DNA from: Allosphingosinicella sp.
GTDB lineage: Bacteria > Pseudomonadota > Alphaproteobacteria > Sphingomonadales > Sphingomonadaceae
Reading direction: 5' to 3'
Assembly: GCA_036386795.1 (NCBI GenBank)
Contig: DASVUZ010000062.1
Span: forward strand, 23,710-87,709
Length of the DNA: 64,000 bases
A program made the translations under genes and the position numbers. Within the stretch, counting starts at the first letter, position 1, and every line of letters starts with the position of its first letter. The notes beneath the pieces were generated by a model that ran no database searches, was not told the DNA's origin, and was given only the letters and a program-made list of their open reading frames with translations. Shown here one piece after another: positions 4,208 to 59,268 of the stretch.

Positions 4208-4869
4208 CGCTCGAGGCCGAATATGGCTTCGAACAGGGCGTTGAGCGGCCTCGGCGGCAGCTTGTCGTCGCTGTCCTCCTTGCGGCGCACCTTGCCCGCG
4301 AAGCGCGCCGCCGCGGCGAGCGGGAAGAGCAGGCTGTTGAACCAGCCCATCATCTCGAGCTTGAGGCCGGCCGCCTCGACCGCGGAGCGAAGAGTCCGGC
4401 GGGTGTAGCGGCGCTTGTGGTGGTTGACGACGTCGTGGGCGCTCCACATCCAGGGGTGCGCCGGGACCGCGACAAGGATACGGCCTCCGGGCCTGAGCTT
4501 TCGGGCGATGCTCTCGAGCGCCTGCCGGTCCGCCTCGACATGCTCCAGCACGTCGAGGATGGCGACGAGGTCGTAGGCGCCGTCCTCCACGCCGCTGAGG
4601 GCGGGCAGAGGCGAATCCATCACCTCATGGCCGAGCCGGGCGCTGGCGATGGCGCGGGCGGCGGCATCGATCTCGACGGCGTCGACCCCGCCGAAGCGCT
4701 TGAGCATGACGAGGTTGTGCCCGGTGCCGCAGCCGATCTCGAGGATTCGCGGATCCGCCGGAAGCCGGATTCGGCGGCGGATGAGGGCGGCGAGGATCTC
4801 GCGGCGGGCGCGGTACCACCAGTGGCGGCTGTCGAGCTCGGCCATGCGGTCATAGACGATCCTCTCCAT
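4126..4869 (-). CDS. Class I SAM-dependent methyltransferase
   Basis: MERIVYDRMAE start at 4869; ILEIGCGTG motif I, LDVLEHV, LRPGG. Confidence 0.88.
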   Translation of the reverse strand: MERIVYDRMAELDSRHWWYRARREILAALIRRRIRLPADPRILEIGCGTGHNLVMLKRFGGVDAVEIDAAARAIASARLGHEVMDSPLPALSGVEDGAYDLVAILDVLEHVEADRQALESIARKLRPGGRILVAVPAHPWMWSAHDVVNHHKRRYTRRTLRSAVEAAGLKLEMMGWFNSLLFPLAAAARFAGKVRRKEDSDDKLPPRPLNALFEAIFGLERYVIGRLPLPPGVSLVAIVSAPASSAA

Positions 4870-7187: not shown

Positions 7188-7807
7188 ACCTCGAAGCTGA
7201 CCGAGATTCCGTCGATCACGAACTGGGCTGCGAGTGCGGCGAGGATGACTCCGAGCAGGCGAGTCAGCATCGCCTCCATGCGATGGCCGAGCAGGCGCAT
7301 CAGCCAGCCGGCGGCGAGCAGCGAGATCAGGGTGAGGAGAAGCACCGCGCCGAGGGCGGCGAGCACCACCAGCGACTGGTCGAGCCCGTCGCTGCGAGCC
7401 ATCAGAAGCATGATCGAGGCGATTGAGCCCGGCCCCGCGATCATCGGGATCGCCATCGGGAAGACCGAAACGTCGTCATGCTCGGGGTCCGCCTCGACCT
7501 GCTGGGCGCGGGTCTCGCGGCGCTGGGTGCGGCGCTCGAAGACCATATCCAGAGCGATCAGGAACAGCATGATCCCGCCGGCGATCCGGAAGGCGGCGAG
7601 GCTGATTCCGAGCGTCCTCAGCAAATCCTCGCCGAGCAGGCCGAAGAAGAGCAGGATCCCGGCCGCGACCAGCGACGCCCGGATCGCCATCGACCGGCGC
7701 TGGGCGGCGGTCGCCTCCCTGGTGAGGCCGGCGAAGATCGGAGCGCAGCCGGGCGGGTCGATGACGACGAAGAAGGTGACGAAGGCCGAGAGGAAGAGAG
7801 CGGTCAC
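7184..7807 (-). CDS. marC: MarC family membrane protein
   Basis: [40 protein letters not shown]. Confidence 0.9.
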
Positions 7808-8694
7808 AGGCCCTCCGGCGGCGGCAGGCCGGCGCGGGCGTGGGCCGCGACGAGAGTGTTGCGGAGGAGGACGGCGATCGTCATCGGGCCGACCCCGCCG
7901 GGCACGGGCGTGATCGCTCCCGCGACTTCGGCCGCGCTTTCGAAATCGACGTCGCCGACGAGGCGGCCCTTGCCCTCCCCTTCGCCGGGGACGCGGTTGA
8001 TTCCGACGTCGATCACGGTGGTTCCGGGCTTGATCCAGTCGCCCCGGATCATCCCGGCTCGGCCGACGGCGGCGACGAGGATGTCGGCCCGCCGCACCAC
8101 CTCACGCAGGTCGCGGGTCCGGCTGTGGGCGATCGTCACCGTGCAATTCTCGGCGAGGAGGAGCTGGGCCATGGGCTTGCCGACGATGTTCGATCGGCCG
8201 ACCACCACCGCCTCGAGCCCCGAAAGGTCGCCGTGCCGGTCCTTCAGAAGCATCAGGCAGCCGAGCGGGGTGCAGGGCACAAGCCCCTCCTCGCCGACGG
8301 CGAGTCGGCCGGCGCTGATCGGGTGGAAGCCGTCCACGTCCTTGGCCGGATCGACCGCCTCGATCACCGCCTTGTCGTCGATCCCGGCCGGGAGCGGCAG
8401 CTGGACCAGGATTCCGTCGACATTATCGTCGTCGTTGAGCGCTCCGATCAGGGCGAGAAGCTCCTCCTGCGAAACGCTGTCGGGGAGCCGATGCTCGAAG
8501 CTCGCCATTCCGGCCTCGGTGGTCGCCCGGCCCTTGGAGCGGACATAGACGGCGCTCGCCGGATCCTCGCCGACCAGGACCACCGCCAGGCCGGGCGCCC
8601 GGCCGGCCGCGGCGGAAAAGGCCGGAACGGCCTCGGCGATCCGCTCCCGAAGCCGGGCCGCGAAGGCCCGGCCGTCGATGAGCGCGGCGCTCAC
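7804..8694 (-). CDS. folD: Bifunctional methylenetetrahydrofolate dehydrogenase/cyclohydrolase
   Basis: [45 protein letters not shown]. Confidence 0.97.
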
Positions 8695-8996
8695 CGGTAA
8701 TAGCCGGCCGCGACTTCGAACGCGACGCTTCGAAGCATCCGGTCGAGGATGAGAAGGACGATCAGGACCACCATCGGGCTGAAGTCGAGGCCGCCGAAAT
8801 CCGGAAGGATCTTGCGGATCGGCCGGTAGACCGGCTCGGTGATCCGGTCGAGCCCCTTGAGGAGCCCCCGGACGAAGTCGTTATAGGTGTTGATGACGTT
8901 GAAGGCGACCAGCCAGCTGAGGATCATCTGGATGACGATGATCCACCAGATCACCGTCAGCAGGATCAGCACAACCTGAATTAGGCCCAGCAGCAT
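8691..8996 (-). CDS. yggT: YggT family membrane protein
   Basis: [28 protein letters not shown]. Confidence 0.9.
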
Positions 8997-9125
8997 CGGT
9001 CAGTCTCCCCGCGGTCGGTCCAGCGCGATGTAGGGAAGGGGCGGGTTGGGGGCAATGCCATGGCACCCCCTCGCTGCGGCTCTCACGGGAATGACGAAGC
9101 TCGCAAAGCGCGCTATCCTGGCTCG

Positions 9126-10133
9126 ATGACCATCGCCTTTGTCCTCGCGCTCGCGGCGGCGGCTCCCCAGCCGGGCGCGATCAAGACCTTCCAGGACTGG
9201 ACGGTGGGGTGCGACAATGGCGCCGCCTGCCACGCCGTCGCCCTGATGCCGGAGGACTGGCCGGAGGACGGCCTGACGATGAGCGTCCGGCGCGGGCCCC
9301 AGCCCGGCGCGGCGCCCGAGCTGGCCTTCGATCTCGGCGCCGACAGCAGCGCCGTCGCGGTCAGCGCCGACGGCGTCCGGCTGGCCGCGCGCCTGTTCGG
9401 AAGGGAGGGCGAGACCCGGGTCGCGCCCGCCGACGCTTCGGCCCTGATCGCGGCGCTGCGTTCCGCCGGCCGGCTGGAGCTTCACTCGGCCGACGGCAAG
9501 CCGCTCGGGACCGTCTCGCTGAAGGGCGCGAGCGCGGCCCTGCTCTACATGGACGAGCAGCAGGGCCGGGTCGGCACTGCGACCGCCCTCGTCCGGCGCG
9601 GGACCCGGCCGCAGGGCCGGCTCGCCTCGCCGCCGCCTCTTCCGGTCGTCGTCGCCCGGCGAGTGCCCTCGACCCGGCCGCTGGCGCTGTCGGCGGCCGC
9701 GATTCGGGCGCTTCGCAGGAAGCATGGCTGCACGATCGACGAGGTCGGCGGCCCGGACGAGGCCGAGACCGCCGCGATCGGCCCGTCGGAGACCCTGCTG
9801 CTGCTGGCCTGCGGCTCGGGCGCCTACAATGTCAGCCACGTTCCCTTCGTCCTTCGGCGCGGCCATGGCGGCGCCGAGCTCGCGGCTTTCGACGTGAGGC
9901 CGGGCTGGTGGGCGGAGGAAGGCAAGCCGATGCTGGTCAATGCGGGCTGGGACAGGGAGCGGGGGCTGCTGGGCAGCTTCTCCAAGGGGCGAGGCCTCGC
10001 CGATTGCGGCACGACCTCCGAATATGGCTGGGACGGGCGGGCCTTCCGGCTGGTGGAGCAGGCCGAGATGGACGAGTGCCGGGGATCGCGGGACTACATC
10101 ACGACCTGGCGGGCGCGGGTGGTTCGGAAATAG
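9126..10133 (+). CDS. DUF1176-like secreted protein
   Basis: Signal peptide from ATG 9126; FQDWTVGCDN, CGSGAYN, KGRGLADCG, WDGRAF. Confidence 0.75.
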   Translation: MTIAFVLALAAAAPQPGAIKTFQDWTVGCDNGAACHAVALMPEDWPEDGLTMSVRRGPQPGAAPELAFDLGADSSAVAVSADGVRLAARLFGREGETRVAPADASALIAALRSAGRLELHSADGKPLGTVSLKGASAALLYMDEQQGRVGTATALVRRGTRPQGRLASPPPLPVVVARRVPSTRPLALSAAAIRALRRKHGCTIDEVGGPDEAETAAIGPSETLLLLACGSGAYNVSHVPFVLRRGHGGAELAAFDVRPGWWAEEGKPMLVNAGWDRERGLLGSFSKGRGLADCGTTSEYGWDGRAFRLVEQAEMDECRGSRDYITTWRARVVRK

Positions 10134-10140
10134 GGCGCGG

Positions 10141-11112
10141 CTAGGGCGCGGACCTTTCCGGTTCGGCACGCGCCAGCACCAGGGCGAAGCGCGCTTCCTC
10201 GTCGGTCCATTCCTCGACCGGAGTCCAACCGCCGGCGAGAAGCAGGAGTCGGGCGTCGCGCTCGCCATATTTGTGGCTGTTCTCGGTGTGGATGGTCTCG
10301 CCCGAGCGCATCGAGAAGGGCGTTCCGGCCACTTCGAAAGCGACGTCGCGAAGCGCCTCGAGGTGCATCTCTATCCGGCTGAGCCGCTCGTTCCAGATCG
10401 CCCGGTGGCCGAAGGCGTCGAGCGGGATGTCGCCGTCAAGCTCGCGGTTGATTCGGGCGAGCAGGTTGAGGTTGAACTCGGCCGTCACTCCCGCGGAATC
10501 GTCATAGGCGCTGAGCAGTTCCGAGGGGTCCTTGACCCGGTCGAAGCCGATGAACAGCCAGGCGCCGGTTCCGAGCGTCTGGCGCATCGAGCGGAGCAGG
10601 TCAACGCCGGTCGAGGGGACCAAGTTGCCGATCGTCGAGCCGGGGAAGAAGCCGAGCTTGGGAGAGACGGCAAGCGGCTCCGGCAAGGGGAAGGGGCGGG
10701 TGAAATCGGCTTCGATCGGATAGACGGGGAGTCCGGGAAAGTCCTCGGCGAGCGAGCTTGCCGCGTCGCGAAGGAAATCGCCGCTGATGTCGACGGGCAC
10801 GTAGGCCGCCGGGCCGGCGGCGGCGAGCAGGATCCGAGTCTTCACGGAGGCGCCCGAGCCGAATTCGACGACGGCCTGGCCCGGTCCGGCGATCCGCGCG
10901 ACGTCGGGGCAATGGCGCTCGAGCAAAGCGGTTTCGGTGCGGGTCAGATAATATTCGGGAAGCCCGGTGATCGCCTCGAACAGCTCGGAGCCGCGGCGGT
11001 CGTAGAGCCAGCGCGCCGGGACGGCGCGGATCGGCGCCGCGAGCCCGGCGAGCACGGCGTCGCGAAAGGCCTGGTCGGCGAGCAGGGACGCGCGCGGGGC
11101 GTCCATCAGCAT
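10141..11112 (-). CDS. egtD: L-histidine N-alpha-methyltransferase
   Basis: YDRRGSELFEAIT.LPEYYLTRTE, VEFGSG, FPGSTIGN, YDDSAGVTAEFNLNLL, IHTENSHKY. Confidence 0.95.
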   Translation of the reverse strand: MLMDAPRASLLADQAFRDAVLAGLAAPIRAVPARWLYDRRGSELFEAITGLPEYYLTRTETALLERHCPDVARIAGPGQAVVEFGSGASVKTRILLAAAGPAAYVPVDISGDFLRDAASSLAEDFPGLPVYPIEADFTRPFPLPEPLAVSPKLGFFPGSTIGNLVPSTGVDLLRSMRQTLGTGAWLFIGFDRVKDPSELLSAYDDSAGVTAEFNLNLLARINRELDGDIPLDAFGHRAIWNERLSRIEMHLEALRDVAFEVAGTPFSMRSGETIHTENSHKYGERDARLLLLAGGWTPVEEWTDEEARFALVLARAEPERSAP

Positions 11113-11160
11113 CCGCCCGCATCGGCTAATAACGGTTTCCCCGACCCGATCGAGCGCATC

Positions 11161-12426
11161 CTAGAGGTCCCGGGCCAAGCGGAGTCCGGAGAACATCCAG
11201 CGCTGGTGGGGGTAGAAGAAGTTGCGGTAGCTGGACCGCATGTGGCCGCGCGGAGTGGCGCAGCTGCCGCCCCTCAGGACGAACTGATTGCACATGAACT
11301 TGCCATTATACTCTCCGACCGTGCCTTCCTGCGGGCGGTAGCCGGGATAAGGCGAATAGGCGCTCATCGTCCATTCCCACAGATCGCCGAACATCTGGCG
11401 AAGGCCCGTCCCCGCGGCCGCCGCGGCCGGCCTCGCCGGGCCCGCCGAATCGAGCTGGTTGCCGCCGGCGGGGTCCAGCGGCGAGGCCGCCGACTCCCAT
11501 TCCTCCTCCCGAGGGAGGCGGGCGCCGGACCAGCGGGCGAAAGCGTCGGCCTCGTACCAGGCGATGTGGCAGACCGGCTCGGCGGGGGCGAGCGGGCGGG
11601 CGCCGTCCAGGCCGAAGCGGCTCCAGCCGTCTTTGTCGCGAATCCAGTAGAGCGGCGCCTCGATCCGGTTCTCGGCCGCCCAGGCCCATCCGTCCGCCAT
11701 CCACAGCTCCGGCCGGGCGTAGCCGCCGTCCTCGATGAAGCCGAGCCATTCGGCATTGGTGACCAGCCGGTCGGCGAGCGCGTGCGGGTGGAGCAGCGCC
11801 GAGTGCCGGGGGCCCTCGCAGTCGAAGGCGAAGCCGCGGCCGTCATGGCCGATCTCGCACAGGCCCGCTTGACCCTCGATCCACTCGAGGGGAGGGGCGA
11901 GCGGCGCCGGCGCCGGGGCGCCCGGGGGCCAGAGCGCGGGGCGGAGCGGATTCTCGGCGAAGGCGGCCTGGATATCCATCAGCATCAGCTCCTGATGCTG
12001 CTGCTCGTGGTTGAGACCCAGCTCGACCAGCGCCAGCGCTTCCCCGGGCAGGTTGGGGAAGGCGGCGACCAGGGCTTCGTCGACATAGGCTCGCCAGGCG
12101 AGGATCTCGTCCAGGTGCGGGCGGCTCAGCATGCCGCGGCGGGCCCGCGGGTGCCGGTCGCCCTCGCCTTCGTAATAGGAATTGAACAGATAGGCCCAGC
12201 TTTCGTCCCAGGGGCGGTGGCCGGGGACATGGTCGCGAAGCACGAAGGTCTCGAGGAACCAGCTGCCGTGGGCGAGATGCCACTTGGCGGGCGAGGCGTC
12301 GGGCATGGGCTGAAGGGTCGCGTCCGAGTCGGAAAGCGGCGCGGCGATCGCCTCGCTCAGAGCTCGCACGGCCCGGTAGCGCTCGGCCAGCGACGCACCG
12401 GGCGAAGGATGTGACTGGGTCGCCAT
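11161..12426 (-). CDS. egtB: Ergothioneine biosynthesis sulfoxide synthase
   Basis: SPAKWHLAH, LFNSYY, HEQQHQEL iron ligands, FGE-sulfatase-like C-terminus, EYNGKFM, NFFYPHQRW. Confidence 0.95.
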   Translation of the reverse strand: MATQSHPSPGASLAERYRAVRALSEAIAAPLSDSDATLQPMPDASPAKWHLAHGSWFLETFVLRDHVPGHRPWDESWAYLFNSYYEGEGDRHPRARRGMLSRPHLDEILAWRAYVDEALVAAFPNLPGEALALVELGLNHEQQHQELMLMDIQAAFAENPLRPALWPPGAPAPAPLAPPLEWIEGQAGLCEIGHDGRGFAFDCEGPRHSALLHPHALADRLVTNAEWLGFIEDGGYARPELWMADGWAWAAENRIEAPLYWIRDKDGWSRFGLDGARPLAPAEPVCHIAWYEADAFARWSGARLPREEEWESAASPLDPAGGNQLDSAGPARPAAAAAGTGLRQMFGDLWEWTMSAYSPYPGYRPQEGTVGEYNGKFMCNQFVLRGGSCATPRGHMRSSYRNFFYPHQRWMFSGLRLARDL

Positions 12427-12517
12427 CCGGGGCTCCTACACCAAAATATTGATGGAGGTTAGGCGTCCTCGCCGCCGGGTGGCCGCCGGCGCGTTCCGTA
12501 GCCGGCCGGGACCCAAT

Positions 12518-12599
12518 CCGTTCGGGCTGAGCTTGTCGAAGCCTTCCCTTCCCTCTGCAAGGCAATAAGACAGCCCTTCGACAGGCTCAGGGCGAACGG
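12518..12599. repeat. REP-like palindrome (CCGTTC...GAACGG family)
   Basis: CCGTTCGGGCTGAGCTTGTCGAAG pairs with CTTCGACAGGCTCAGGGCGAACGG. Confidence 0.75.
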
Positions 12600-12629
12600 G
12601 TGGGGGGTTCAACCTAATCCCATAACGCC

Positions 12630-13199
12630 CTAGCGCGTGGCGCCCGGCTTCCAGAGGACTTCGCCGCCTTCGCCGGCGGCGGCGAGCCGGGCCATTACGA
12701 AGAGATGGTCGGAGAGCCGGTTCAGGTAAATGAGGGCGGGGGGGTTGAGCGGCGCGGCCGAGGAGGCGGCGACGGCGGAGCGTTCCGCCCGGCGGACGAT
12801 GGCCCGGGCGAGGTGGATCGCCGCCGCTCCGCCGCCCCCGCCCGGCAGGATGAAGCTTCGAAGCGGCTCGAGCCGCTCGTTCATCGAGTCGATCTCGAGC
12901 TCGAGCCGGTCGATCTGCGGCTGGACGATGCGCAGAGCCATGTCGGACGGGGCGAAATCCTCGCCGGGGGTGGCGAGGTCGGCGCCGAGGTCGAACAATT
13001 CGTTCTGGATCGCGGTCAGCATCCGCCGCTGCGCCTCGTCCGCGACCTGGAGGATGGCGAGGCCGATCGCGCTATTGGCTTCGTCGACGTCGCCGATCGC
13101 CGCGAAGATGGGGTCGGCCTTGGACCGGCGGGAGCCGTCGGTGAGGCCGGACGCCCCCCTATCCCCGGTCCGGGTATAGATCTTGTTGAGCCGGACCAG
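12630..13199 (-). CDS. Cob(I)yrinic acid a,c-diamide adenosyltransferase (PduO type), probable CTG start
   Basis: Frame extends 59 codons upstream of the track ORF to (CTG)VRLNKIYTRTGD; also GDVDEANS, QNELFDLGADL, YLNRLSD. Confidence 0.9.
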   Translation of the reverse strand: MVRLNKIYTRTGDRGASGLTDGSRRSKADPIFAAIGDVDEANSAIGLAILQVADEAQRRMLTAIQNELFDLGADLATPGEDFAPSDMALRIVQPQIDRLELEIDSMNERLEPLRSFILPGGGGGAAAIHLARAIVRRAERSAVAASSAAPLNPPALIYLNRLSDHLFVMARLAAAGEGGEVLWKPGATR

Positions 13200-13202
13200 G
13201 GC

Positions 13203-13406
13203 TCAGCTCTTTCCGCCGACGACGAGCAGGAAGAGGATGACGAGGACGATCGCGACCGCCTGGAACATCACCCGCTTGCGCATCAGGTCCTGGGAGCGGG
13301 CGCCGGTAATGTCCTTGCCCGAAGCCATTCCGATCACGCCCTTGGCGAGGACGAAGAGGGTGGCTCCGGCGGCGAGGACGATCAGGATGACGAGGAATGT
13401 GCTCAT
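13203..13406 (-). CDS. Twin-transmembrane small protein (HIG1-like)
   Basis: 67 aa, two TM helices, SQDLMRKRVMFQA. Confidence 0.8.
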   Translation of the reverse strand: MSTFLVILIVLAAGATLFVLAKGVIGMASGKDITGARSQDLMRKRVMFQAVAIVLVILFLLVVGGKS

Positions 13407-13415
13407 CGCGCCTAT

Positions 13416-14282
13416 CTAGGCCTCCCCGACCGAATATCCAGAAGGCAATCGTCCGGCGAGCAGGTCCGCCGCCAGCTTCGTCGGGTCTGCGCCCGTCTTC
13501 CGAAGGGCGTCCAGCTCCGGCGCTCCGTTCCGCTTGGCGAGGCGGCGGCCGTCGGCGCCGAGCAGCAGCGGATGGTGGTGGTAGCGCGGGACCGGAAGCC
13601 CCAGCAGGGCCTGGAGCAGGCGGTGCACGTCGGTGGCGGCGTAGAGGTCGCGGCCGCGCACGACGTCCGTCACGCCCTGGCCGGCGTCGTCGACGGTGAC
13701 CGCGAGATGGTAGCTCGTCGGAGCGTCCTTGCGGGCGAGGACGACGTCGCCATGGGCCTTCGGCTCCGCCTGCACCTCGGTATCGCCGTCGTTCCAGTAG
13801 AGCGGACCCGCCTCGGCCGAGGCCCTCGCCGAGTCGAGGCGCCAGGCATGCGGCTCGGCGGCCGCCCGGTGGGCCCGCTCCTCGGGCGCCAGGGCGCGGC
13901 AGGTGCCCGGATAGAGCGGTCCGTCCGGCCCGTGCGGCGCGGCGGCGCTGGCGGCGATCTCGGCGGCGATCGCGGAGCGGGTGCAGAAGCAGGGATAGAC
14001 GAGGCCAGCGCTCTTCAGCCGACCGAGCGCTTCGGCGTAGTGGTCGAGCCGCTCGGACTGGAAGAGAATCTCGCCGTCCCAGTCGATGCCGAGCCAGGCG
14101 AGATCCTCGATGATCGAATCGACATGCTCGGCCCGGGATCGGCCGGGGTCGATATCCTCGATCCTGAGAAGGAAGGCTCCGCCCCGGCTGCGGGCGAAAT
14201 CGTGCGCGAGCAGGGCCGACAAAGCGTGGCCCAAATGCAACCGTCCGGTCGGGCTCGGAGCGAAACGCGTGACGACGCGCAT
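13416..14282 (-). CDS. gluQ: Glutamyl-Q tRNA(Asp) synthetase
   Basis: TRFAPSPTG.LHLGH, LRIEDID, YPCFCTR, YHLAVTVDD, VRGRDL, LAKR; no anticodon-binding domain. Confidence 0.9.
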   Translation of the reverse strand: MRVVTRFAPSPTGRLHLGHALSALLAHDFARSRGGAFLLRIEDIDPGRSRAEHVDSIIEDLAWLGIDWDGEILFQSERLDHYAEALGRLKSAGLVYPCFCTRSAIAAEIAASAAAPHGPDGPLYPGTCRALAPEERAHRAAAEPHAWRLDSARASAEAGPLYWNDGDTEVQAEPKAHGDVVLARKDAPTSYHLAVTVDDAGQGVTDVVRGRDLYAATDVHRLLQALLGLPVPRYHHHPLLLGADGRRLAKRNGAPELDALRKTGADPTKLAADLLAGRLPSGYSVGEA

Positions 14283-14432
14283 CAGCGGTCTTGACCCGGA
14301 GAGTCGCGCCATGCTGTCATGGCTTCGTCACCCTCCCGTGGGAGGGGGGCTTGGACAGGGGCAGGGCTTCCCAGTCCTGGGTGCGACAGGCCGGGCGTCT
14401 TTCCCCATGACGACGGGGCGAATGCGCGGCGC

Positions 14433-14999
14433 ATGTACCATCCCGACCTTCTCCGCCATCCGGACGCCTGCCCGGCGCTGGTGCTCAACGCCGACTACAC
14501 GCCGCTGAGCTATTATCCGCTCAGCCTGTGGCCGTGGCAGACGGCGGTCAAGGCCGTGTTCCTCGAGCGGGTCGACATCGTCGCCCAATATGTCCGCGAG
14601 GTGCACAGCCCGACCCGCACCCTTCAGCTGCCCTCGGTGATCGCTCTCAGGCAATATGTCCGGCCGAGCGAGAATCCCGCCTTCACCCGGTTCAACCTGT
14701 TCCTTCGCGACCGGTTCGAATGCCAATATTGCTCGGCCACCGCCGAGCTCACCTTCGACCATGTCGTTCCGCGCGCCCAGGGCGGACGCACGACCTGGGA
14801 GAATGTCGCCACCGCCTGCGCGCCCTGCAACCTCCGGAAGGGCGGCCGGACGCCCGCCCAGGCGCGGATGAACCTCAACCGCCGCCCCTACCGGCCGACT
14901 AGCTGGCAGCTTCAGGAGCATGGCCGGAGCTTCCCGCCCAATTACCTGCACGAGAGCTGGCGCGATTATCTCTATTGGGACATCGAGCTGGAGGCCTGA
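14433..14999 (+). CDS. HNH endonuclease
   Basis: LVLNADY, CQYC, TFDHVVPR..GG, W.NVATACAPCNLRKG. Confidence 0.9.
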   Translation: MYHPDLLRHPDACPALVLNADYTPLSYYPLSLWPWQTAVKAVFLERVDIVAQYVREVHSPTRTLQLPSVIALRQYVRPSENPAFTRFNLFLRDRFECQYCSATAELTFDHVVPRAQGGRTTWENVATACAPCNLRKGGRTPAQARMNLNRRPYRPTSWQLQEHGRSFPPNYLHESWRDYLYWDIELEA

Positions 15000-15489
15000 A
15001 CGCCCGCCCGAAGGGCCGGAAGTTCCGAAGTTGGCCGAAAAATAAAAATCCTTCCGATCAGTCGTGCGCCATTGATCGGTTTTCCCGATTTATCGGGGGC
15101 CGCGTAAGTCGCGACGCCGATTCCGTTCTCACGATAGGAAAGAGCCAGGTCAGGACATAGCATGAACCAACCCAATGCTCAATTCGTGCTTCCGCGCCCG
15201 CGGACGAAACGATCGGCCCACTTTTCCGGGCGCCGGCCGGGGCGTCCGGTGGACGGCGCCGGACGCGCGCCGGAGCGTTGCCGGGCTCCCGCCGGCCCAG
15301 TGCGGGGCCGGTGCGGGGCCTCTGCCGGGCCGGTGCCGTGCGCTGCCGGGCCGGTGCGGCGGGGCGGGATGGCGGGCGGCGGAACTCCTCGCGCCCCCTT
15401 TGCAAAAGTTTGCAAAGGAGCGCCCGCACTCCGCGGCGACTCGCCCGCAAGGACAGCTTTTCGATTGCGCGGCGGGGGCGGGCGCGGCC

Positions 15490-17379
15490 ATGAGGCAGGC
15501 GATGAGCGACGCCGCCTCCCGTATCGTGGATCTGGTCCGGCGCGGCGATCTTGCCGCGGCGGAAGCGCTTGGCCACTCGGCGCTGAGCGAGCGGCCGGGG
15601 GATATCGAGGCGAGGGTCGCACTCGCCAACCTCAAGGCGATGAAGGGGGACGTCGCCGGAGCCGAGGCCTTGTGCACGACGGATGCGCCCGAGCTGCTCC
15701 GGCTCAGGGGCTATTTGCTTCTGTCGCAGGGCCGGGCCGGGGAGGCCGCGGGCTGCTACGAGCGGATCGTCGAGGCCGACCCCTCCGACTGGGAGATCTG
15801 GAACAATCTCGGCAACGCGCGAAGCGCCGCCGGCGACCTTTCCGGGGCGGTCGACGCGCTCGGCCGGGCGCGGCGGCTTCGCCCCGATCTCGCTCCGATC
15901 CAGTTCAACTATGCGACGTGCCTCGCCGCCGCCGGCCGGCTCGAGGAGAGCCTGGAGCCTTATGCGCAGGCGGCCCGGCTCGAGCCGGGCAATCCGGCGC
16001 CGGCGCTCGCGCTCGGCAAGCTGCTTCGCCATCTCGGCCGCAATCGCGAGGCGATCGAGCCGCTGGGCGACGCCGCCCGGCTCGCCCGTCGCGAAGCCGA
16101 GGCCCAGGTCGAGCTCGGACGCGCGCATGCCGGGCTCGCCGAGCTGGACGCGGCCGAGGCCGCCTATCGCGAGGCGCTGCGCCGGCAGCCCGGGCTCGCA
16201 ATCGCCTTCCTCGAGCTCGGAATCGTCCTCGAGCGCGGCAACCGGATCGAGGGACTCGGCCCGCTTCTTGGCGAAGCCCGGGCGCAGGGGGTTCCGGCCG
16301 GCGACCTCGCCTATCTCGACGCGCTTCGCCTCCGCGACGAGGGGCGGATCGACGAAGCCCTCGAAGCCGCGCGGCGGGCGCCGGCGCAGTTCGAGCCGGG
16401 GCGAAGGGCGCTTCTGATCGGCAAGCTCGCCGACCGGGCCGGCGATTCCGAGGCGGCATTCGAGGCGTTCCGCGAGGCGAATGCGATCGCCGCGGCGGAG
16501 CCGGCCGCGGCCGGCGCCGACGCCGCGGGGTTCCGGCGAAGGGTCGAGGCCCTGACCGATTTGGTGTCGCCCGGCTGGGCGGCGGGATGGGTTCCCGCCG
16601 GCCCGGCCGAGCGGGCGCCACCGGCCTTCCTGGTCGGCTTCCCCCGCTCGGGAACGACCCTGCTCGACACGGTGCTGATGGGCCATAAGTCGATCGAAAT
16701 TCTCGAGGAGGAGCCGATCCTCGAGCGGGTCGGAGACAAGCTTGGCGGCTTCGAGCGGCTGCCGGGGCTCGGCGCGGACGAGATTGCGAGCCTGCGCGCG
16801 CTCTATTTCGAGCAGATGGACCGGCTTCTCCCGGAAGCGGCCGGAAGCACGGTGATCGACAAGCTTCCGCTCAACCTGCTCGCGGCGCCGCTAATCCATC
16901 GGCTGTTTCCCGACGCTTCTATCGTCTTCGCCCAGCGCCACCCCTGCGACGTCGTCCTGTCCTGCTTCATGCAGGGCTTCGAGCTCAACGACGCCATGGC
17001 CAATTTCCTCGACCTCGGCGACTCGGCGCGCCTCTACGACCTCGTCCTCGGCTTCTGGGAGAAATGCCGCGACTCGCTGCCGCTGAAGGTCCACGTCGTC
17101 CGCTACGAGGCGCTGGTCGAGGATGTCGAGAGCGAGGCGAGGAGCCTGCTCGATTTCCTCGCCTTGCCCTGGGACCCCGCCGTGCTCGACCACCAGCGCA
17201 CCGCCCAGGCGCGAGGCACGATCAGCACTCCCAGCTATTCGCAGGTCATCCAGCCCATCTATCGCGAGTCGAGCGGGCGCTGGGAGCGTTACCGCGAGCA
17301 AATGGCGCCGGTCCTCCCGATCCTCGCGCCCTGGGCGCTTCGCCTCGGCTACGGCGACATCCTCCAGCCGGAGCGCTGA
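15490..17379 (+). CDS. TPR-repeat sulfotransferase family protein
   Basis: N-terminal TPRs; PAPS motif FLVGFPRSGTTLL, IDKLPLN, RHPCDVVLSC, STPSYSQV. Start uncertain (15490 or 15502). Confidence 0.85.
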   Translation: MRQAMSDAASRIVDLVRRGDLAAAEALGHSALSERPGDIEARVALANLKAMKGDVAGAEALCTTDAPELLRLRGYLLLSQGRAGEAAGCYERIVEADPSDWEIWNNLGNARSAAGDLSGAVDALGRARRLRPDLAPIQFNYATCLAAAGRLEESLEPYAQAARLEPGNPAPALALGKLLRHLGRNREAIEPLGDAARLARREAEAQVELGRAHAGLAELDAAEAAYREALRRQPGLAIAFLELGIVLERGNRIEGLGPLLGEARAQGVPAGDLAYLDALRLRDEGRIDEALEAARRAPAQFEPGRRALLIGKLADRAGDSEAAFEAFREANAIAAAEPAAAGADAAGFRRRVEALTDLVSPGWAAGWVPAGPAERAPPAFLVGFPRSGTTLLDTVLMGHKSIEILEEEPILERVGDKLGGFERLPGLGADEIASLRALYFEQMDRLLPEAAGSTVIDKLPLNLLAAPLIHRLFPDASIVFAQRHPCDVVLSCFMQGFELNDAMANFLDLGDSARLYDLVLGFWEKCRDSLPLKVHVVRYEALVEDVESEARSLLDFLALPWDPAVLDHQRTAQARGTISTPSYSQVIQPIYRESSGRWERYREQMAPVLPILAPWALRLGYGDILQPER

Positions 17380-17383
17380 GCCG

Positions 17384-18982
17384 ATGCGGGATTTCTCGCA
17401 GCTGCTCGACGGCCTCGTCTACACCCGCTCGCGAAACGCCAAGCTCAAGCTGATCGGCGATTATCTTCGCCGCACGCCCGATCCCGACCGAGGCTATGCC
17501 CTGGCCGCCCTGACCGGCGAGCTCGACCTGCCCGGAGTGAAGCCCGCGGCGATCCGGGCGATCGTCGAGGAGCGCGTCGATCCCACGCTCTTCTACATGA
17601 GCTGGGACTATGTCGGGGACATGGCCGAGACGGTCTCGCTGCTGTGGCCGAAGCGGATCGACCAGCCCGCCGAGATCGACGACGGGTCCCTTCGGATCGC
17701 CAATGTCGTCGAGCGGCTTCAGACCCTCGGCCGGGCGGAGGCGCCGGGCGCGCTCGCCGGGATGCTCGACCATCTCGACGCCAGCGGCCGCTACGCCTTG
17801 CTCAAGCTGGCGACCGGCGAATTGAGGATCGGCGTTTCGGCCCGGCTCGCCAAGACGGCCGTGGCGCAGGCCTTCGGACTCGATGTCGATGCGGTCGAGG
17901 AGGTCTGGCACGGCCTCGGCCCGCCCTACCTTCCGCTCTTCGCCTGGGCGGAGGGGCGGGGGCCGCAGCCGACGGCCGAGGACGTGCCGGTCTTCCGGCC
18001 CTTCATGCTCGCCCACCCGCTCGAGGATTTGCGGGTCTCGCTCGACGATTATGCGGCGGAGTGGAAATGGGACGGGATCCGCGTCCAGATCGTCCGGGCC
18101 GGAGGCGAGACCCGGCTCTACAGCCGGGCCGGCGACGACATCAGCCGCTCCTTCCCGGAAGTGGCCGAAGCGTTCGGCGTCGACGCAGCGGTCGACGGCG
18201 AATTGCTGGTCAAGGGGGAGTTTCAGGGCGCCGACGCCCATGGCGGCGCGGCGGCGAGCTTCAACGCCCTTCAGCAGCGGCTTGGGCGAAAGCTCGTCTC
18301 GGCGAAGATGCTGAAGGACTATCCCGCCTTCGTCCGATTGTACGACATCCTGTTCGACGGGCGCGAGGATTTGCGGCCGCTCCCCTGGGAGAAGAGGCGG
18401 GCCCGCCTTGCGGCGCTCGTGCCCCGGCTCGACCCCGACCGGTTCGACCTGTCCGCGCTGATCGAGGCGGAGGGCTTCGAGGCGCTGGAGGAGATTCGCG
18501 CCGGAGCCCGCGACGCCTCGATCGAGGGGGTGATGCTGAAGCGGCGCGACAGCCCCTATACGACGGGCCGCCGGACCGGCCTCTGGTACAAGTGGAAGCG
18601 CGACCCGCTCGTCGCCGACTGCGTGCTGATGTACGCCCAGCGCGGAAGCGGCAAGCGCTCCTCTTATTATTCGGACTTCACCTTCGGCTGCTGGACCCAA
18701 GAGGGCGAGCTGCTCCCGGTCGGCAAGGCCTATTTCGGATTCACCGACGAGGAATTGCTGTGGCTGGACCGGTTCGTTCGGACGCGGACGGTGCAGCGCT
18801 TCGGCCCGGTCCGCGAGGTGGAGAAGAGCCTGGTCCTCGAAGTCGCGTTCGATTCGATCCATTCGAGCAAGCGCCACAAGTCCGGCCTCGCCATGCGCTT
18901 TCCGCGAATCTCCAGGATCCGGACCGACAAGCCGGCCTCCGAGGCGGATTCGATCGAGGCCCTGAAGCGGCTCGCGACCTAG
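17384..18982 (+). CDS. ATP-dependent DNA ligase (DNA-damage-response type)
   Basis: PFMLAHP, motif I EWKWDGIR, VDGEL, EGVMLK, WYKWK, RFPRI. Confidence 0.92.
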   Translation: MRDFSQLLDGLVYTRSRNAKLKLIGDYLRRTPDPDRGYALAALTGELDLPGVKPAAIRAIVEERVDPTLFYMSWDYVGDMAETVSLLWPKRIDQPAEIDDGSLRIANVVERLQTLGRAEAPGALAGMLDHLDASGRYALLKLATGELRIGVSARLAKTAVAQAFGLDVDAVEEVWHGLGPPYLPLFAWAEGRGPQPTAEDVPVFRPFMLAHPLEDLRVSLDDYAAEWKWDGIRVQIVRAGGETRLYSRAGDDISRSFPEVAEAFGVDAAVDGELLVKGEFQGADAHGGAAASFNALQQRLGRKLVSAKMLKDYPAFVRLYDILFDGREDLRPLPWEKRRARLAALVPRLDPDRFDLSALIEAEGFEALEEIRAGARDASIEGVMLKRRDSPYTTGRRTGLWYKWKRDPLVADCVLMYAQRGSGKRSSYYSDFTFGCWTQEGELLPVGKAYFGFTDEELLWLDRFVRTRTVQRFGPVREVEKSLVLEVAFDSIHSSKRHKSGLAMRFPRISRIRTDKPASEADSIEALKRLAT

Positions 18983-19007
18983 CTCGAGCCGCTCGAGGAG
19001 ACCAAAT

Positions 19008-19094
19008 CCGTCATTGCGACCGCGGCGAAGCAATCCGGCGCCGCCTCCGACGCGCGGCCGGATTGCCGAGTCGCTTCGCTCCCCGCAATGACGG
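19008..19094. repeat. REP-like palindrome (CCGTCATTGCG family)
   Basis: CCGTCATTGCG..GCGAAGCAATCC pairs with GGATTGC..TCGC..CGCAATGACGG. Confidence 0.75.
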
Positions 19095-20617: not shown

Positions 20618-20710
20618 GGAGACGTGGGTGAGTGGCTGAAACCAGCGGTTTGCTAAACCGCCGTAGGGGGATTACTCCTACCGAGGGTTCGAATCCCTCC
20701 GTCTCCGCCA
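20618..20710 (+). tRNA. tRNA-Ser(GCT)
   Basis: GGAGACG acceptor stem, GAGTGG D-loop, GCGGT-TTGCTAA-ACCGC anticodon arm, long variable arm, GTTCGAATC, encoded CCA. Confidence 0.97.
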
Positions 20711-20715
20711 GAGCC
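20696..20715 (+). repeat. attL core (20-bp direct repeat)
   Basis: CCTCCGTCTCCGCCAGAGCC, identical to 59249-59268. Confidence 0.92.
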
Positions 20716-20824: not shown

Positions 20825-20846
20825 GTGTGGGAACATTTGAGGGAGC
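20825..20846 (+). promoter_or_regulatory. Putative integrase arm-type site (left end)
   Basis: GTGTGGGAACATTTGAGGGAGC, two imperfect 11-bp units; 16/22 identical to 59185-59206 and 17/22 to 39450-39471. Confidence 0.55.
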
Positions 20847-20850
20847 GGAA

Positions 20851-22032
20851 ATGGCCGGTCTCACCGTCACCGAAGTCAGGAACGCCAAGCCCGGGCGCCA
20901 TGCGGACGGGAAGGGGCTGTACCTGCTGGTGAAGCCCAGCGGGGCGAAATCCTGGGTCATGCGGGTCCAGGTGGGCGGAAGGCGCCGCGATTACGGCCTC
21001 GGCTCCGTCGATATCGTCTCCCTGGCGGAAGCTCGGGACCGGGCGCTGGAGTGCCGGAAGATGGCCAAGAACGGCCTCGACCCTTCTCTCGAGCGCAAGA
21101 AAGCCCAGAGGGCGATCCCGACTTTCGAGGAGGCCGCCCGTAGCTACCACGAGGCGGTCAAGGCGAGCTGGCGCAACGGAAAGCATGCCGACCAGTGGCT
21201 AAGCACCCTCGTGGCCCACGCCTTCCCCACGATCGGGGCGATTCGCGTCGACCATATCGAAGCTCCCACAGTCCAGTCCGTGCTCCTGCCGATCTGGCTC
21301 ACCCTGCCGGAGACGGCCCGGCGCGTCCGGCAGCGAATCGGCTCGGTCCTCGACTTCGCCCACGGCCAGGGCTGGCGGGCCACCGAAACTCCGCGGAACG
21401 CGATCAACTCGCTGATGAAGCGGATCAAGCAGCCGCGCCGAAGCGGCGGCTTCGCGGCCATGCCCTATGCCGAGCTCCCCGCATTCATGGATGGGTTGCG
21501 CTCCGAATCGCCCACGGTCGGCCGGCTCGCCCTCCAGTTCCTGATCCTTACCGCGGCACGTTCGGGCGAGGTCCGCGGCGCCCGCTGGGAGGAAATCGAC
21601 CTCGAAAAGGCCCAGTGGAACATCCCGGCGAACCGGATGAAGTCTGGCGAGGCGCACAGCGTGCCCCTCACCCCGGCCGCCGTCGAGGTTCTTCGGCAGG
21701 TGAGAGAGATCACGCCGATTCGCAAGGGGCAGCCGATCTTCCCCGGCCTGAAGGGCAAGCCGCTCAGCGACGCGACCCTGGCCAAGGTGCTCCGCGTCGG
21801 CGGCGGCGACTCCTACACCGTCCACGGCATGCGCTCGACCTTCCGCGACTGGCTCGCCGAGCAGACCAGCTTCCCCGGCGACTGGGCCGAGGCGGCGCTG
21901 GCCCACACCCTCTCGAACAAGGTCGAGGCCGCCTACAAGCGCACCAAGTTCCTCGAGCAGCGGCGCAAGCTCATGGCGGCTTGGAGCGATCACCTCGCCG
22001 CAGCCTCGAACGTCGTCAGCTTGGCCGGGTGA
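20851..22032 (+). CDS. P4-like tyrosine integrase with N-terminal arm-binding domain
   Basis: GLYLLVKPSGAKSW; catalytic R (ARSGE), HGMR, LAH, AY. Confidence 0.95.
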   Translation: MAGLTVTEVRNAKPGRHADGKGLYLLVKPSGAKSWVMRVQVGGRRRDYGLGSVDIVSLAEARDRALECRKMAKNGLDPSLERKKAQRAIPTFEEAARSYHEAVKASWRNGKHADQWLSTLVAHAFPTIGAIRVDHIEAPTVQSVLLPIWLTLPETARRVRQRIGSVLDFAHGQGWRATETPRNAINSLMKRIKQPRRSGGFAAMPYAELPAFMDGLRSESPTVGRLALQFLILTAARSGEVRGARWEEIDLEKAQWNIPANRMKSGEAHSVPLTPAAVEVLRQVREITPIRKGQPIFPGLKGKPLSDATLAKVLRVGGGDSYTVHGMRSTFRDWLAEQTSFPGDWAEAALAHTLSNKVEAAYKRTKFLEQRRKLMAAWSDHLAAASNVVSLAG

Positions 22033-22041
22033 CGACAGGCA

Positions 22042-22692
22042 ATGGCGGCAAAGCGAGCTGCGGAGTCGCCAGAATGGATTACGCCCGGTGAAGGACTGGG
22101 CGCTCTCCTAAAGGCGGGGCGCCGGCCGGACGAGGCCAGGGTCGTTATTTTCCGGGGACTTCAAACAGAGAGCTTCCTCGGTCGGGCAAAACGCATTGTG
22201 AGCGAATACTCCGATGGCACCGTCACGGAGCATCTCGATCACGCAGTCCCAGGCCAAGTCTGGCAACGCTGCCCGCTCCCTCCTTATGGTCACCTATTCT
22301 GGTCGGCCGGCGACATCCGCATGGATCCAATGCCGCTGCCCGACGAAACCGTGGTAAAGGTTCACGGCGAGCCCATCGATCTTCCGTTCGGCTACTTGCC
22401 CCCGATTGTTACGGTAACGGGCTTTCGAATACCGCTGCTCGCGGTGGTGGAACTCGGCGGCATCTTCGATCGCCCAGCTGGCCGAGGCCGCCGGCCCGGC
22501 GTCGGCGGATTCGCGAAAGCCGACGCACCCCTGGTCGAGGAGATGCATCAGCTCCTGCTGGACGGCGCCGTTGGCTCTGTTCATGCGGCCGCGGTCCAAG
22601 TCACGCCTAAGGCTATTGGGACCGGCGAGCCGGAGGCAAGGGCGAGACGTCTCGCCAAACGCTACAAAGAGGTCTTCCCGGACGCTCCATAA
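22042..22692 (+). CDS. Hypothetical protein of the element core
   Basis: 216-aa ORF directly after the integrase; possible DNA-binding C-terminus (GRGRRPG...RRLAKRY). Confidence 0.6.
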   Translation: MAAKRAAESPEWITPGEGLGALLKAGRRPDEARVVIFRGLQTESFLGRAKRIVSEYSDGTVTEHLDHAVPGQVWQRCPLPPYGHLFWSAGDIRMDPMPLPDETVVKVHGEPIDLPFGYLPPIVTVTGFRIPLLAVVELGGIFDRPAGRGRRPGVGGFAKADAPLVEEMHQLLLDGAVGSVHAAAVQVTPKAIGTGEPEARARRLAKRYKEVFPDAP

Positions 22693-22778
22693 GACGCACT
22701 TAAACTTCAAAGACATTCGCCGACGGTTGTGGAGATTCGGCACCGGTCGCCGGCATCCCTGCCGGCACGGAGGCAGGA

Positions 22779-22946
22779 ATGGAAAAGATCGCAGTTTCGA
22801 TCGGGGAGGCAGGCAGGTCGATCGGGATCGGCCGGACCAAGGTGTACGAGCTGATCAACGAGGGGCGTCTGAAGACTTTCAAGCTGGGTCGGCGCACCTT
22901 GGTGACGGTGGCGTCGATCCACGCGCTCATCGCCTCGGTCTCCTGA
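22779..22946 (+). CDS. AlpA/excisionase-like HTH protein (55 aa, below the ORF-track cut-off)
   Basis: MEKIAVSIGEAGRSIGIGRTKVYELINEGRLKTFKLGRRTLVTVASIHALIASVS; purine-rich RBS upstream. Confidence 0.85.
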   Translation: MEKIAVSIGEAGRSIGIGRTKVYELINEGRLKTFKLGRRTLVTVASIHALIASVS

Positions 22947-22959
22947 GCGGCGTCGGATC

Positions 22960-23517
22960 ATGGGCTCCCGAAGGCGCCGGGGCGCCAAGTCCGACCATCG
23001 CGCCGACACGAGGGGCGGCCGCTTCGTGGGCCTCCCGCACGTCGTCCTTGAGAGCGAGGCCTACCGGCATTTGTCTCCCATCGAACGGGCAGTTCTCGTC
23101 GAGATCCTCGCCAGGTTCACCGGATACAATAATGGCGAGATAGCAATCAGCTATCGGGAGCTCGCGCATCGTCTCAATCGGAAGAACGAGGCGCCTTTCG
23201 GCCCAGCTGTCGCCAAGCTGATCGTCCACGGTCTCATCGACATCACCACGGAGGCGCGATGGAAGGACCGGCGCGCTCGGGAATATCGATTGACCTTCAT
23301 CAGCACCACCGACGGCGCGGGCCGGCACGTTGCGGCGACGAACGAATACCGGTCATGGGTGCCGGAAGAAAGAATCAGCACTACCGACGTGGTAGCAGCA
23401 CCAGCGGAATCTACTACGACATCGGTAGTAGCCGTTGCGCAGCCCGCTACCGCGTCGGTAGCAGCCCGCACGCAAATCCGAGGATCCCGGCCTCCTCGCC
23501 TACTACTGGTGCGGTAG
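22960..23517 (+). CDS. Winged-HTH protein, putative replication initiator
   Basis: RFVGLPHVVLES..Y..LS, NNGEIAISYRELAHRL; the 3' end carries 33-bp-spaced palindromic repeats. Confidence 0.6.
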   Translation: MGSRRRRGAKSDHRADTRGGRFVGLPHVVLESEAYRHLSPIERAVLVEILARFTGYNNGEIAISYRELAHRLNRKNEAPFGPAVAKLIVHGLIDITTEARWKDRRAREYRLTFISTTDGAGRHVAATNEYRSWVPEERISTTDVVAAPAESTTTSVVAVAQPATASVAARTQIRGSRPPRLLLVR

Positions 23518-23535
23518 CCCTTATAAATAACCATA
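23381..23535. repeat. Four iteron-like CTAC-N6-GGTAG repeats plus AT-rich tract (putative ori)
   Basis: CTAC at 23381, 23414, 23447, 23503 (spacing 33, 33, 56); TTATAAATAA at 23521-23530. Confidence 0.65.
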
Positions 23536-23928
23536 GGGTGGGTGCCGGCGAAGCATGCTCGCCCGGTCGCGCGCTACCCATAAGCGCCGTAGCGATCGGG
23601 CGAGCTTGCGAGTCGCTGCCGCTCACGCCTGCGGATAGTCGAGGGACTTCGCCCTTCTTCTCGCACGCGCCAGCGTGCGCCCGGTCACTCGCGGGCTGGA
23701 CCCGCCCATGCCGCCCGCGACCGCCAAACATGCCACTCGACACCGCGCGGTGTCCAAGCCGAAGGTTTCCTTTACCCTGACTTTACCGACCGGGCGCAAC
23801 GTGAACCGTCTCGTCGCACCCAGGGTGTTGATACGAGGGGCTTTTTTGGCATTTTGGCACTTTCTGCCGGGTGAAGTGGGTAAAGGAATCGGGAGCCCTG
23901 CTTCAGCTCGGACACCGGATCACGGCTA

Positions 23929-59248: not shown

Positions 59249-59268
59249 CCTCCGTCTCCGCCAGAGCC
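59249..59268 (+). repeat. attR core (duplicated tRNA-Ser 3' end)
   Basis: CCTCCGTCTCCGCCAGAGCC, identical to 20696-20715. Confidence 0.92.

Follow-up and report, generated by a model that had tools for sequence, protein, structure and literature searches.

In the lambda O gene, the part that encodes an N-terminal winged helix precedes four dyad-symmetric iterons and then an AT-rich tract (PMC7466680). A DNA-binding domain, intragenic iterons and an AT tract occur in the same order in the gene studied here, an initiator-like gene of an integrated island that lies within a 64,000-nucleotide stretch of an Allosphingosinicella sp. genome (contig DASVUZ010000062.1; the whole stretch is referred to as the window). 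The segment of the window at 23380–23536 is interpreted as a cis-acting array that is read by the protein encoded in the same DNA and that is probably, as the most likely of its possible functions, the replication origin of the island. The iterons start at approximately codon 117 in lambda O and at approximately codon 141 in the window gene; the lambda iterons are 18 bp long, 20–24 bp apart and next to an AT tract of approximately 40 bp, whereas the window dyads are 17 bp long, 33 bp apart in a three-plus-one arrangement and followed by a 12-bp box. Furthermore, helicase loading in lambda involves a C-terminal domain of O and the neighboring P gene, whereas the window protein ends in the fourth dyad and has no loader gene, and the lambda origin is carried by a phage, whereas the window array is part of an integrated island. 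Sequence and fold similarity between lambda O and the window family is weak. O-like initiators with an iteron origin inside their gene are a known kind of arrangement, of which the present array would be a variant in an unnamed family, on islands and satellite-like elements, and with no loader of its own.

The best fold matches of the window protein in the PDB are RepA_N initiators (the RepA proteins of staphylococcal pSK41 and pTZ2162). Origins of the pSK41 type lie inside rep. The RepA_N iterons of the Vibrio PLE satellite are semi-palindromic, as are the dyads described here, and PLE RepA is the initiator-only protein of an integrated satellite whose replication needs helper-phage functions (PMC7145576). 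The PLE origin is located in a non-coding region, unlike the intragenic array of the window, and the RepA_N proteins differ from the window protein in that there is no significant sequence match and the fold scores are weak (E 3e-3, template modeling (TM) score of about 0.46). The alphaproteobacterial RepC proteins (repABC) have their oriV in their own coding sequence at an A+T-rich region, RepC itself is an incompatibility determinant as well, and repC is without iterons (PMC3155836). RepC is a much larger protein found on plasmids and secondary chromosomes, and no homology was detected.

Once excised, phage satellites depend on a replication function of their own, and the initiator-like gene, which follows int and AlpA/Xis, occupies the slot of replication genes in these elements (PMC10085698). 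The order of int, AlpA/Xis, and replication gene followed by cargo or head genes is shared with the Staphylococcus aureus pathogenicity islands (SaPI) and other phage-inducible chromosomal islands (PICI), with P4, and with the capsid-forming PICI (cf-PICI). The SaPI and P4 initiators have helicase and/or primase activity (PMC7145576), unlike the window protein, which has neither. Elements of the PICI and cf-PICI type measure approximately 10–15 kb, whereas the window island, with its int and HTH_17 excisionase-like gene, measures 38.6 kb. To our knowledge, the island exceeds the known satellites in size.

Dyad layout in the window and in related loci

Within the window, the motif CTAC-N6-GGTAG occurs only at 23381, 23414, 23447, and 23503 (spacings of 33, 33, and 56 bp), which amounts to six strand matches on four sites compared with 0.03 expected from shuffled sequences, and none of the 100 shuffles reached six. 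Units 1 and 3 are perfect CTACC-N5-GGTAG dyads, and all four units sit in the 3′ end of the open reading frame (ORF) at 22960–23517, where they encode its 11-residue repeat from codon 141 onward. The TAG stop codon of the ORF (23515–23517) falls within unit 4 which, at 56 bp from unit 3, lies in a frame other than that of units 1–3. Adjoining unit 4 is the AT box CCTTATAAATAACCATAG with TTATAAATAA at 23521–23530; its AT-rich part is only about 12 bp long and is the AT-richest 12-mer within 400 bp to each side. The units, their encoded repeat and the AT tract, together with a downstream stem of approximately 18 bp, had been reported in an original prediction made from the sequence of the window, and all of them were found where it had placed them. 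No DnaA box, IHF site or CtrA site is claimed within the AT box, for which the best DnaA-box match found by eye was 6/9.

A protein search returned 100 homologues of 125–313 amino acids that share a conserved N-terminal region of approximately 130 residues and have variable tails. Overall, 58 loci with homologues were taken from genomes, metagenomes, IMG/VR, and assemblies, and 47 of these are distinct. All but one of the distinct loci (46 out of 47) contain three 17-bp dyads (6-N5-6) exactly 33 bp apart, which begin 84–120 nt past the codons for AREYRLTF in a constant codon phase, a fourth dyad 54–78 bp beyond the third, and a box of consensus CTTATAnnTAAGCCATAC immediately after it. Gene-specific repeats at the same position, which the original prediction had named as the feature to look for in homologues, are therefore present in these loci, with sequences that are specific to each element. 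An unbiased scan of 676 spacing pairs (20 to 45 bp) chose the (33,33) pair in 41 out of 44 loci. Most loci also contain an A-tract motif, CGGAAAACCGCCAAA, approximately 30 bp ahead of unit 4; the window copy, CGCAAATCCG, is read in a different frame from that in locus L007.

Between the units of one locus, identity is 88% in the half-sites, 65% in the five central bases, and 33% in the linkers, and this gradient corresponds to the footprint of a dimeric DNA-binding protein and not to that of a selected peptide. The units do encode an 11-residue repeat, as would be required if they had been selected as a peptide repeat, or had arisen by chance or slippage, and had no role as DNA. However, the half-sites are kept and the spacers and linkers are not, dyad symmetry is meaningless for a peptide, unit 4 and the box are kept in spite of frame shifts and stops, disorder is predicted for the encoded tail, and the chance expectation is as low as given above, which makes an origin of the repeats without a DNA role hardly credible.

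The fate of unit 4 and the box differs between loci. In most loci the ORF reads through both, giving L-I-x-K-P-Y. In the window and in L001, the 56-bp spacing shifts the frame such that a stop falls inside unit 4 and leaves the box non-coding; L008 and L041 have the box after the stop and in a third frame; and in L032 and L053 the ORF terminates earlier, with unit 4 and the AT box still kept. Since both survive outside the ORF or in another frame in these loci, unit 4 and the AT box evidently act as DNA.

Homology, fold, and specificity of the encoded protein

The AlphaFold model, which is based on the family alignment, contains a winged-helix domain at amino acids 20–135 (predicted local distance difference test (pLDDT) >90) and a tail at amino acids 140–184 (pLDDT <50) that is predicted to be disordered and that is exactly the part encoded by the repeats. 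The part of lambda O that is encoded by ori is a flexible linker as well. Among 30 family members, the PHROG matches were to phrog_270 (replication initiation, 20 members, best E 9.5e-8), phrog_186 (DnaD-like, 16 members, best E 1.2e-5), and the O-like phrogs 345, 678, and 391 (13, 8, and 8 members with best E 7.6e-6, 3.7e-6, and 8.9e-4, respectively). Pfam HTH_36 (PF13730) matched 14 of the 30 members, the window protein not among them (best E 2.8e-5), Phage_rep_O (PF04492) matched 4 of 30 close members (best E 4.6e-4), and RepA_N (PF06970) was matched by sequence in a single member (1/30, E 0.19). The top fold matches in the PDB were the N-domains of the staphylococcal RepA_N initiators 4pql, 4pt7, and 5kbj (E 3e-3 to 2e-2, TM about 0.46), and the matches in BFVD, which holds predicted viral structures, include "lambda GpO N-terminal", a replication initiator and a replisome organizer. 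Remote homology and predicted fold point to lambda-O-like and RepA_N-like initiators. The protein was not filed in PF04492, because the hhalign comparison with lambda O is weak and the Pfam matches of the more distant members are few and mixed; a profile–profile link to lambda O was dropped, as the lambda O relatives retrieved were too alike for a useful profile.

Long family members carry one of two unrelated C-terminal modules 3′ of the AT box, either a Cro/YdaS-like helix-turn-helix (HTH) with the motif G-T-x-S-K-F or an FCS-type zinc-ribbon motif (R-F-C-S-x-x-C-R), and neither occurs in the clade of the window.

The fold of the protein also resembles that of MarR-type regulators, and in 40 more distant members Pfam identified a Cro/YdaS-like C-terminus in four, MarR_2 in three (best E 6.5e-6), and Phage_rep_O in one. 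A regulator of this kind could repress or activate its own gene or downstream genes through the four dyads, with the AT box as a −10-like element, and for such an operator array it also speaks that many long members end in the Cro/YdaS-like HTH and that unit 4 adjoins a TATA-containing box. However, a simple sigma-70 scan gives no promoter at the box, which in most loci lies 100–400 nt inside the same ORF and would be a promoter without a gene to serve. Operators are furthermore expected 5′ of the gene, where none were seen, and the strict 33-bp phasing of three units plus one, the AT box and the position right after the DNA-binding domain match the layouts of origins. An operator array is for these reasons an unlikely function of the dyads.

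In lambdoid relatives, iteron sequence and initiator specificity vary together. The dyads of the present family vary by element and include GCTGAC/GTCAGC, GCTGAG/CTCAGC, GCTACC/GGTAGC, GGTAAC/GTTACC, GGTGCC/GGCACC, GGTGAC/GTCACC, GGTTCC/GGAACC, and GTTCGT/ACGAAC among others. The type of dyad tracks the turn and the start of the recognition helix (residues 72–86 of the window protein): TTNFRxIG is paired with GCTGAC, NYGSIG with GCTGAG, NSNRGxA with GGTAAC, and NNxRIA with GGTGAC. A single metagenome-assembled genome of the Sphingomonadaceae (CANJRZ01) contains three family members on three contigs (L005, L011, and L015) with three different dyads (GCTGAG, GGTGCC, and CTGCGG), the pattern that would be expected if divergence in specificity prevents cross-talk between co-resident elements.

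A candidate replication origin and its alternatives

A distant homologue of the family is found in the 16-kb Pseudomonas element vB_Pae_U1 (L067, PP003913.1), namely the gene annotated as "replication protein O" (hhalign 97.6%, E 4e-12). This O-like gene follows int, cox, and small ORFs and is itself followed by a DUF3631 gene annotated as primase, and four GGTACA-N5-TGTACC dyads at 4163–4290 extend from the 3′ end of the O-like gene into the next gene. Because the 6-N5-6 design and its place are the same and the neighbor is annotated as primase, this element supports a replication role for the family. The vB_Pae_U1 record resembles a satellite-type element.

The proposal of an origin is based on the layout in 46 of the 47 loci, the half-site footprint, the co-variation in specificity and the conservation at the level of DNA, and furthermore on the homology to initiator families, the fold, the vB_Pae_U1 homologue, the gene order and the disordered tail encoded by the repeats. 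From these observations we infer a mechanism of protein binding, DNA opening and replication. Each 17-bp dyad, with 6-bp half-sites that are 11 bp apart from center to center, would be bound by one dimer of the winged-helix domain. The three dyads, with their observed spacing of 33 bp (approximately three helical turns), would be exposed on roughly the same face of the DNA, and the fourth would be bound 56 bp further on, where it is observed past the A-tract motif, which may be prone to bending, and against the AT-rich box. In the manner of the lambda O-some, the bound array would distort the DNA and open the AT box or mark it for loading of the replisome. Opening would follow the excision of the island by the integrase and the excisionase encoded just upstream, and loading would rely on host factors or a helper phage, in parallel with the RepA of the Vibrio PLE satellite, since the island has no helicase, primase or loader of its own and the protein of this clade is without a C-terminal domain. 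That the protein is an initiator with an intragenic iteron origin and depends on the host or a helper phage in this way is considered fairly probable.

A number of results weigh against an origin. Taken alone, the window protein matched none of the Pfam families and had a single PHROG match (phrog_270, "replication initiation protein", E 0.017). The E-values of the fold matches are modest, with MarR-type regulators close behind RepA_N in the list, hhalign against lambda O alone gave a probability of 3% (E 0.015, register correct), and among the 40 distant members the matches to MarR_2 exceed those to Phage_rep_O. The window protein has no C-terminal domain, its ORF stopping in unit 4, and the 138 ORFs downstream of the gene in approximately 33 loci include no recurrent helicase, primase or loader. 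The co-variation of dyad and recognition helix is confounded by shared ancestry. Only in about half of the loci does no other 12-mer exceed the AT box in AT content, and the conservation of the box sequence would suit specific recognition or cleavage no less than unwinding; an assignment as a plain unwinding element was rejected on the former count. Finally, a search of PLSDB (72,556 plasmids) returned no clear homologue and one weak partial match (41% coverage, 38.7% identity, E 8e-5). The original prediction of an initiator gene that contains its own origin is partly supported, with remote homology, fold and conserved layout in its favor and the missing C-terminal domain, the absence of a helicase, primase or loader gene and the lack of a clear plasmid homologue against it.

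In the representative library, the family comprises 153 clusters at E <= 1e-30, with 4,317 clusters at E <= 1e-3 for the wider superfamily, and it is present in 17 out of 200 genomes sampled from the bacterial family to which Allosphingosinicella belongs. The initiator-like gene is always located 3′ of the integrase and the AlpA/HTH_17 gene in the relatives, the downstream cargo varies, and the module is found in islands and in capsid-encoding satellite-like elements of varied size. The recurrent functions among the downstream ORFs are limited to large terminase (5), capsid (4), and HNH (2). One element (L019 at 7264–19012, identical to L024 from IMG/VR) encodes int, HTH_17, the initiator-like gene, HNH, large terminase, capsid, protease, portal, and connector, and a second (L069) encodes large terminase, protease, and a probable capsid gene. 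Tail genes were not seen in these two Sphingomonas elements of approximately 10–12 kb, which look like capsid-forming satellites or small prophages of an alphaproteobacterium, to go by their gene content.

Packaging signals inside small-terminase genes, and layouts of winged-helix protein, R-sites and bend such as that of lambda Nu1 with cosB, are established precedents for an alternative in which the module recognizes DNA for packaging: the winged-helix protein would resemble the specificity subunit of a small terminase, the dyads would be intragenic cosB or pac sites, and the AT box would be cut by a terminase that the element or a helper phage encodes. An HNH endonuclease and the large terminase lie within approximately 0.1–0.6 kb downstream in five loci, no separate small-terminase family was recognized among the small neighboring ORFs of L007, L009, and L019, and the AT box has a constant sequence across elements with differing dyads, as is expected of a shared cleavage site. 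On the other hand, none of the members (30 + 40 + 2) match small-terminase families in Pfam or PHROG and most match replication-initiator families. L069 has six ORFs between the gene and the large terminase, including a NusG-like gene, and the 123-amino acid ORF that overlaps the start of its terminase is the better candidate for a small terminase. The Pseudomonas homologue adjoins the primase-annotated gene, and most loci have no packaging genes nearby; in the island of the window, packaging genes were looked for up to 29 kb. Recognition for packaging is accordingly improbable.

A conserved short sequence beside element-specific inverted repeats, on an island with an integrase and with no transfer genes visible near the module, would also be found at the transfer origin of a mobilizable island, where the protein would be an accessory factor of the relaxosome and the AT box the nick site for the relaxase of a helper element. 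No relaxase or coupling-protein family is present among the 138 downstream ORFs, related elements carry capsid and terminase genes instead, the homology indicates replication initiators, and four phased dyads are atypical of oriT, which leaves a transfer origin very unlikely.

If the array is a replication origin, it represents the replication module of a common and unannotated class of alphaproteobacterial islands and satellite-like elements that carry metal-resistance and anti-phage cargo, and these islands would amplify after excision with one small DNA-binding protein as the only factor of their own. A wider proposal, which is possible and put forward tentatively, is that the proteins form an unnamed large family of minimal initiators, each made up of a winged helix and a disordered tail, with the DNA that encodes the tail as the origin. 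With the aid of the host or a helper, they would replicate capsid-forming satellites and tRNA-gene islands after excision, in the Sphingomonadaceae and beyond, and dozens of natural protein–site pairs on a fixed 33-bp scaffold may avoid incompatibility between co-resident elements. With approximately 45 natural combinations of recognition helix and half-site on one constant spacing scaffold, the comparative set is in any case a system for the study of how winged-helix specificity diversifies and how cross-talk between co-resident elements is avoided. For annotation, the array accounts for an odd 11-residue repeat and provides a DNA signature of three dyads 33 bp apart plus one, followed by CTTATAnnTAAGCCATAC.

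The hairpin and the island in the window

The arms of the hairpin downstream of the array (23553–23570 and 23592–23609, 18 nt each) are 89% complementary, and as single-stranded DNA the hairpin has a fold z-score of −3.3 compared with shuffles. At almost every base, the hairpin is the same in the window, L001, and L026, even though the L026 protein has only approximately 60% identity, and the hairpin is missing from the family loci outside this clade. The hairpin that had been proposed as a part of the module is real, and it is not a feature of the family as a whole. Backbone homology extends to 23610, where the hairpin ends, in the comparison with L026 and to 23717 in that with L001. With conservation limited to this clade and the L026 homology ending at this point, the hairpin is best described as an end-piece that the module has only in this clade. 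Its role may be that of a terminator lacking a T-run or that of an accessory of the origin such as a priming signal. A genome-wide repetitive extragenic palindrome or miniature inverted-repeat transposable element was rejected because there is one copy in the 3.87-Mb genome, and a known RNA was rejected because Rfam gave no match. The loop (23573–23595) holds GCTAC-N11-GTAGC, a fifth half-site pair with a wider spacing, which is probably not a true unit since its left half is not kept in L026.

The island is inserted at a tRNA-Ser and is flanked by a 20-bp direct repeat, CCTCCGTCTCCGCCAGAGCC (table 1). Based on the positions of the two copies, the module heads an island of 38.6 kb and not a mini-element, and the compact replicon of a small element that had been envisaged is not upheld. 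Near 39.5 kb, where a relic end of the island might be supposed, the repeat has a match of only about 8 bases. A right attachment site (attR) close to the module was rejected, as the 3′ end of the tRNA gene has no copy within 24 kb and the true repeat is located at 59.2 kb. This distance from the module also indicates that the dyads are not recombination arm sites; in the relatives, cargo likewise separates the dyads from the att site. Minus-strand PepSY genes and copper-resistance genes lie downstream of the initiator-like gene, and the cargo of the island consists of copper-resistance and defense genes.

Table 1. Features of the island and of the dyad array in the window
Feature	Position	Strand	Basis or remark
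tRNA-Ser(GCT), integration target	20618–20710	+	ARAGORN
attL copy of the 20-bp direct repeat CCTCCGTCTCCGCCAGAGCC, left island border	20696–20715	+	
Tyrosine integrase, arm-binding (Arm-DNA-bind_3, Phage_int_M, Phage_integrase)	20827–22032	+	Pfam
ORF216, no family; variable accessory gene	22042–22692	+	
Excisionase/AlpA-like HTH_17 gene	22779–22946	+	Pfam HTH_17 1.6e-8, TIGR01764 7.5e-7
Initiator-like gene, 185 aa	22960–23517	+	AF2 model, PHROG replication-initiator families over family alignment, 100 homologues
Dyad unit 1, ACTACCGACGTGGTAGC	23380–23396	.	Family-wide 17-mer register
Dyad unit 2, ACTACGACATCGGTAGT, within 7-7-7 palindrome 23411–23431	23413–23429	.	
Dyad unit 3, GCTACCGCGTCGGTAGC, perfect 6-N5-6	23446–23462	.	
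CGCAAATCCG, weak window version of the family A-tract motif CGGAAAACCGCCAAA	23471–23480	.	
Dyad unit 4, ACTACTGGTGCGGTAGC, holds stop codon	23502–23518	.	
Conserved AT box CCTTATAAATAACCATAG, family consensus CTTATAnnTAAGCCATAC	23519–23536	.	Outside ORF in window
Clade-specific hairpin, 18-nt arms, right end of conserved backbone	23553–23609	.	
attR copy of the 20-bp direct repeat CCTCCGTCTCCGCCAGAGCC, right island border	59249–59268	+	

ORF216 occurs in the clade of the window only, with 42–44% identity, and was rejected as a conserved partner or loader on account of this confinement and the absence of a family match. Between the window and the metagenome-assembled genome of L001 (5091–5729), the ORF216 proteins share 42% identity, compared with 89% nucleotide identity in the flanking integrase gene and 94% in the block of xis, rep, and ori. 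Judged from these identities, int and xis are separated by a hypervariable cassette slot, which ORF216 occupies. The excisionase-like gene ends 13 nt before the start of the initiator-like gene, and an overlapping palindrome (CCGGCATCCCTGCCGGCA / TGCCGGCACGGAGGCAGG) at 22750–22777, directly 5′ of the excisionase-like gene, may be the operator or the terminator of a xis-rep operon.

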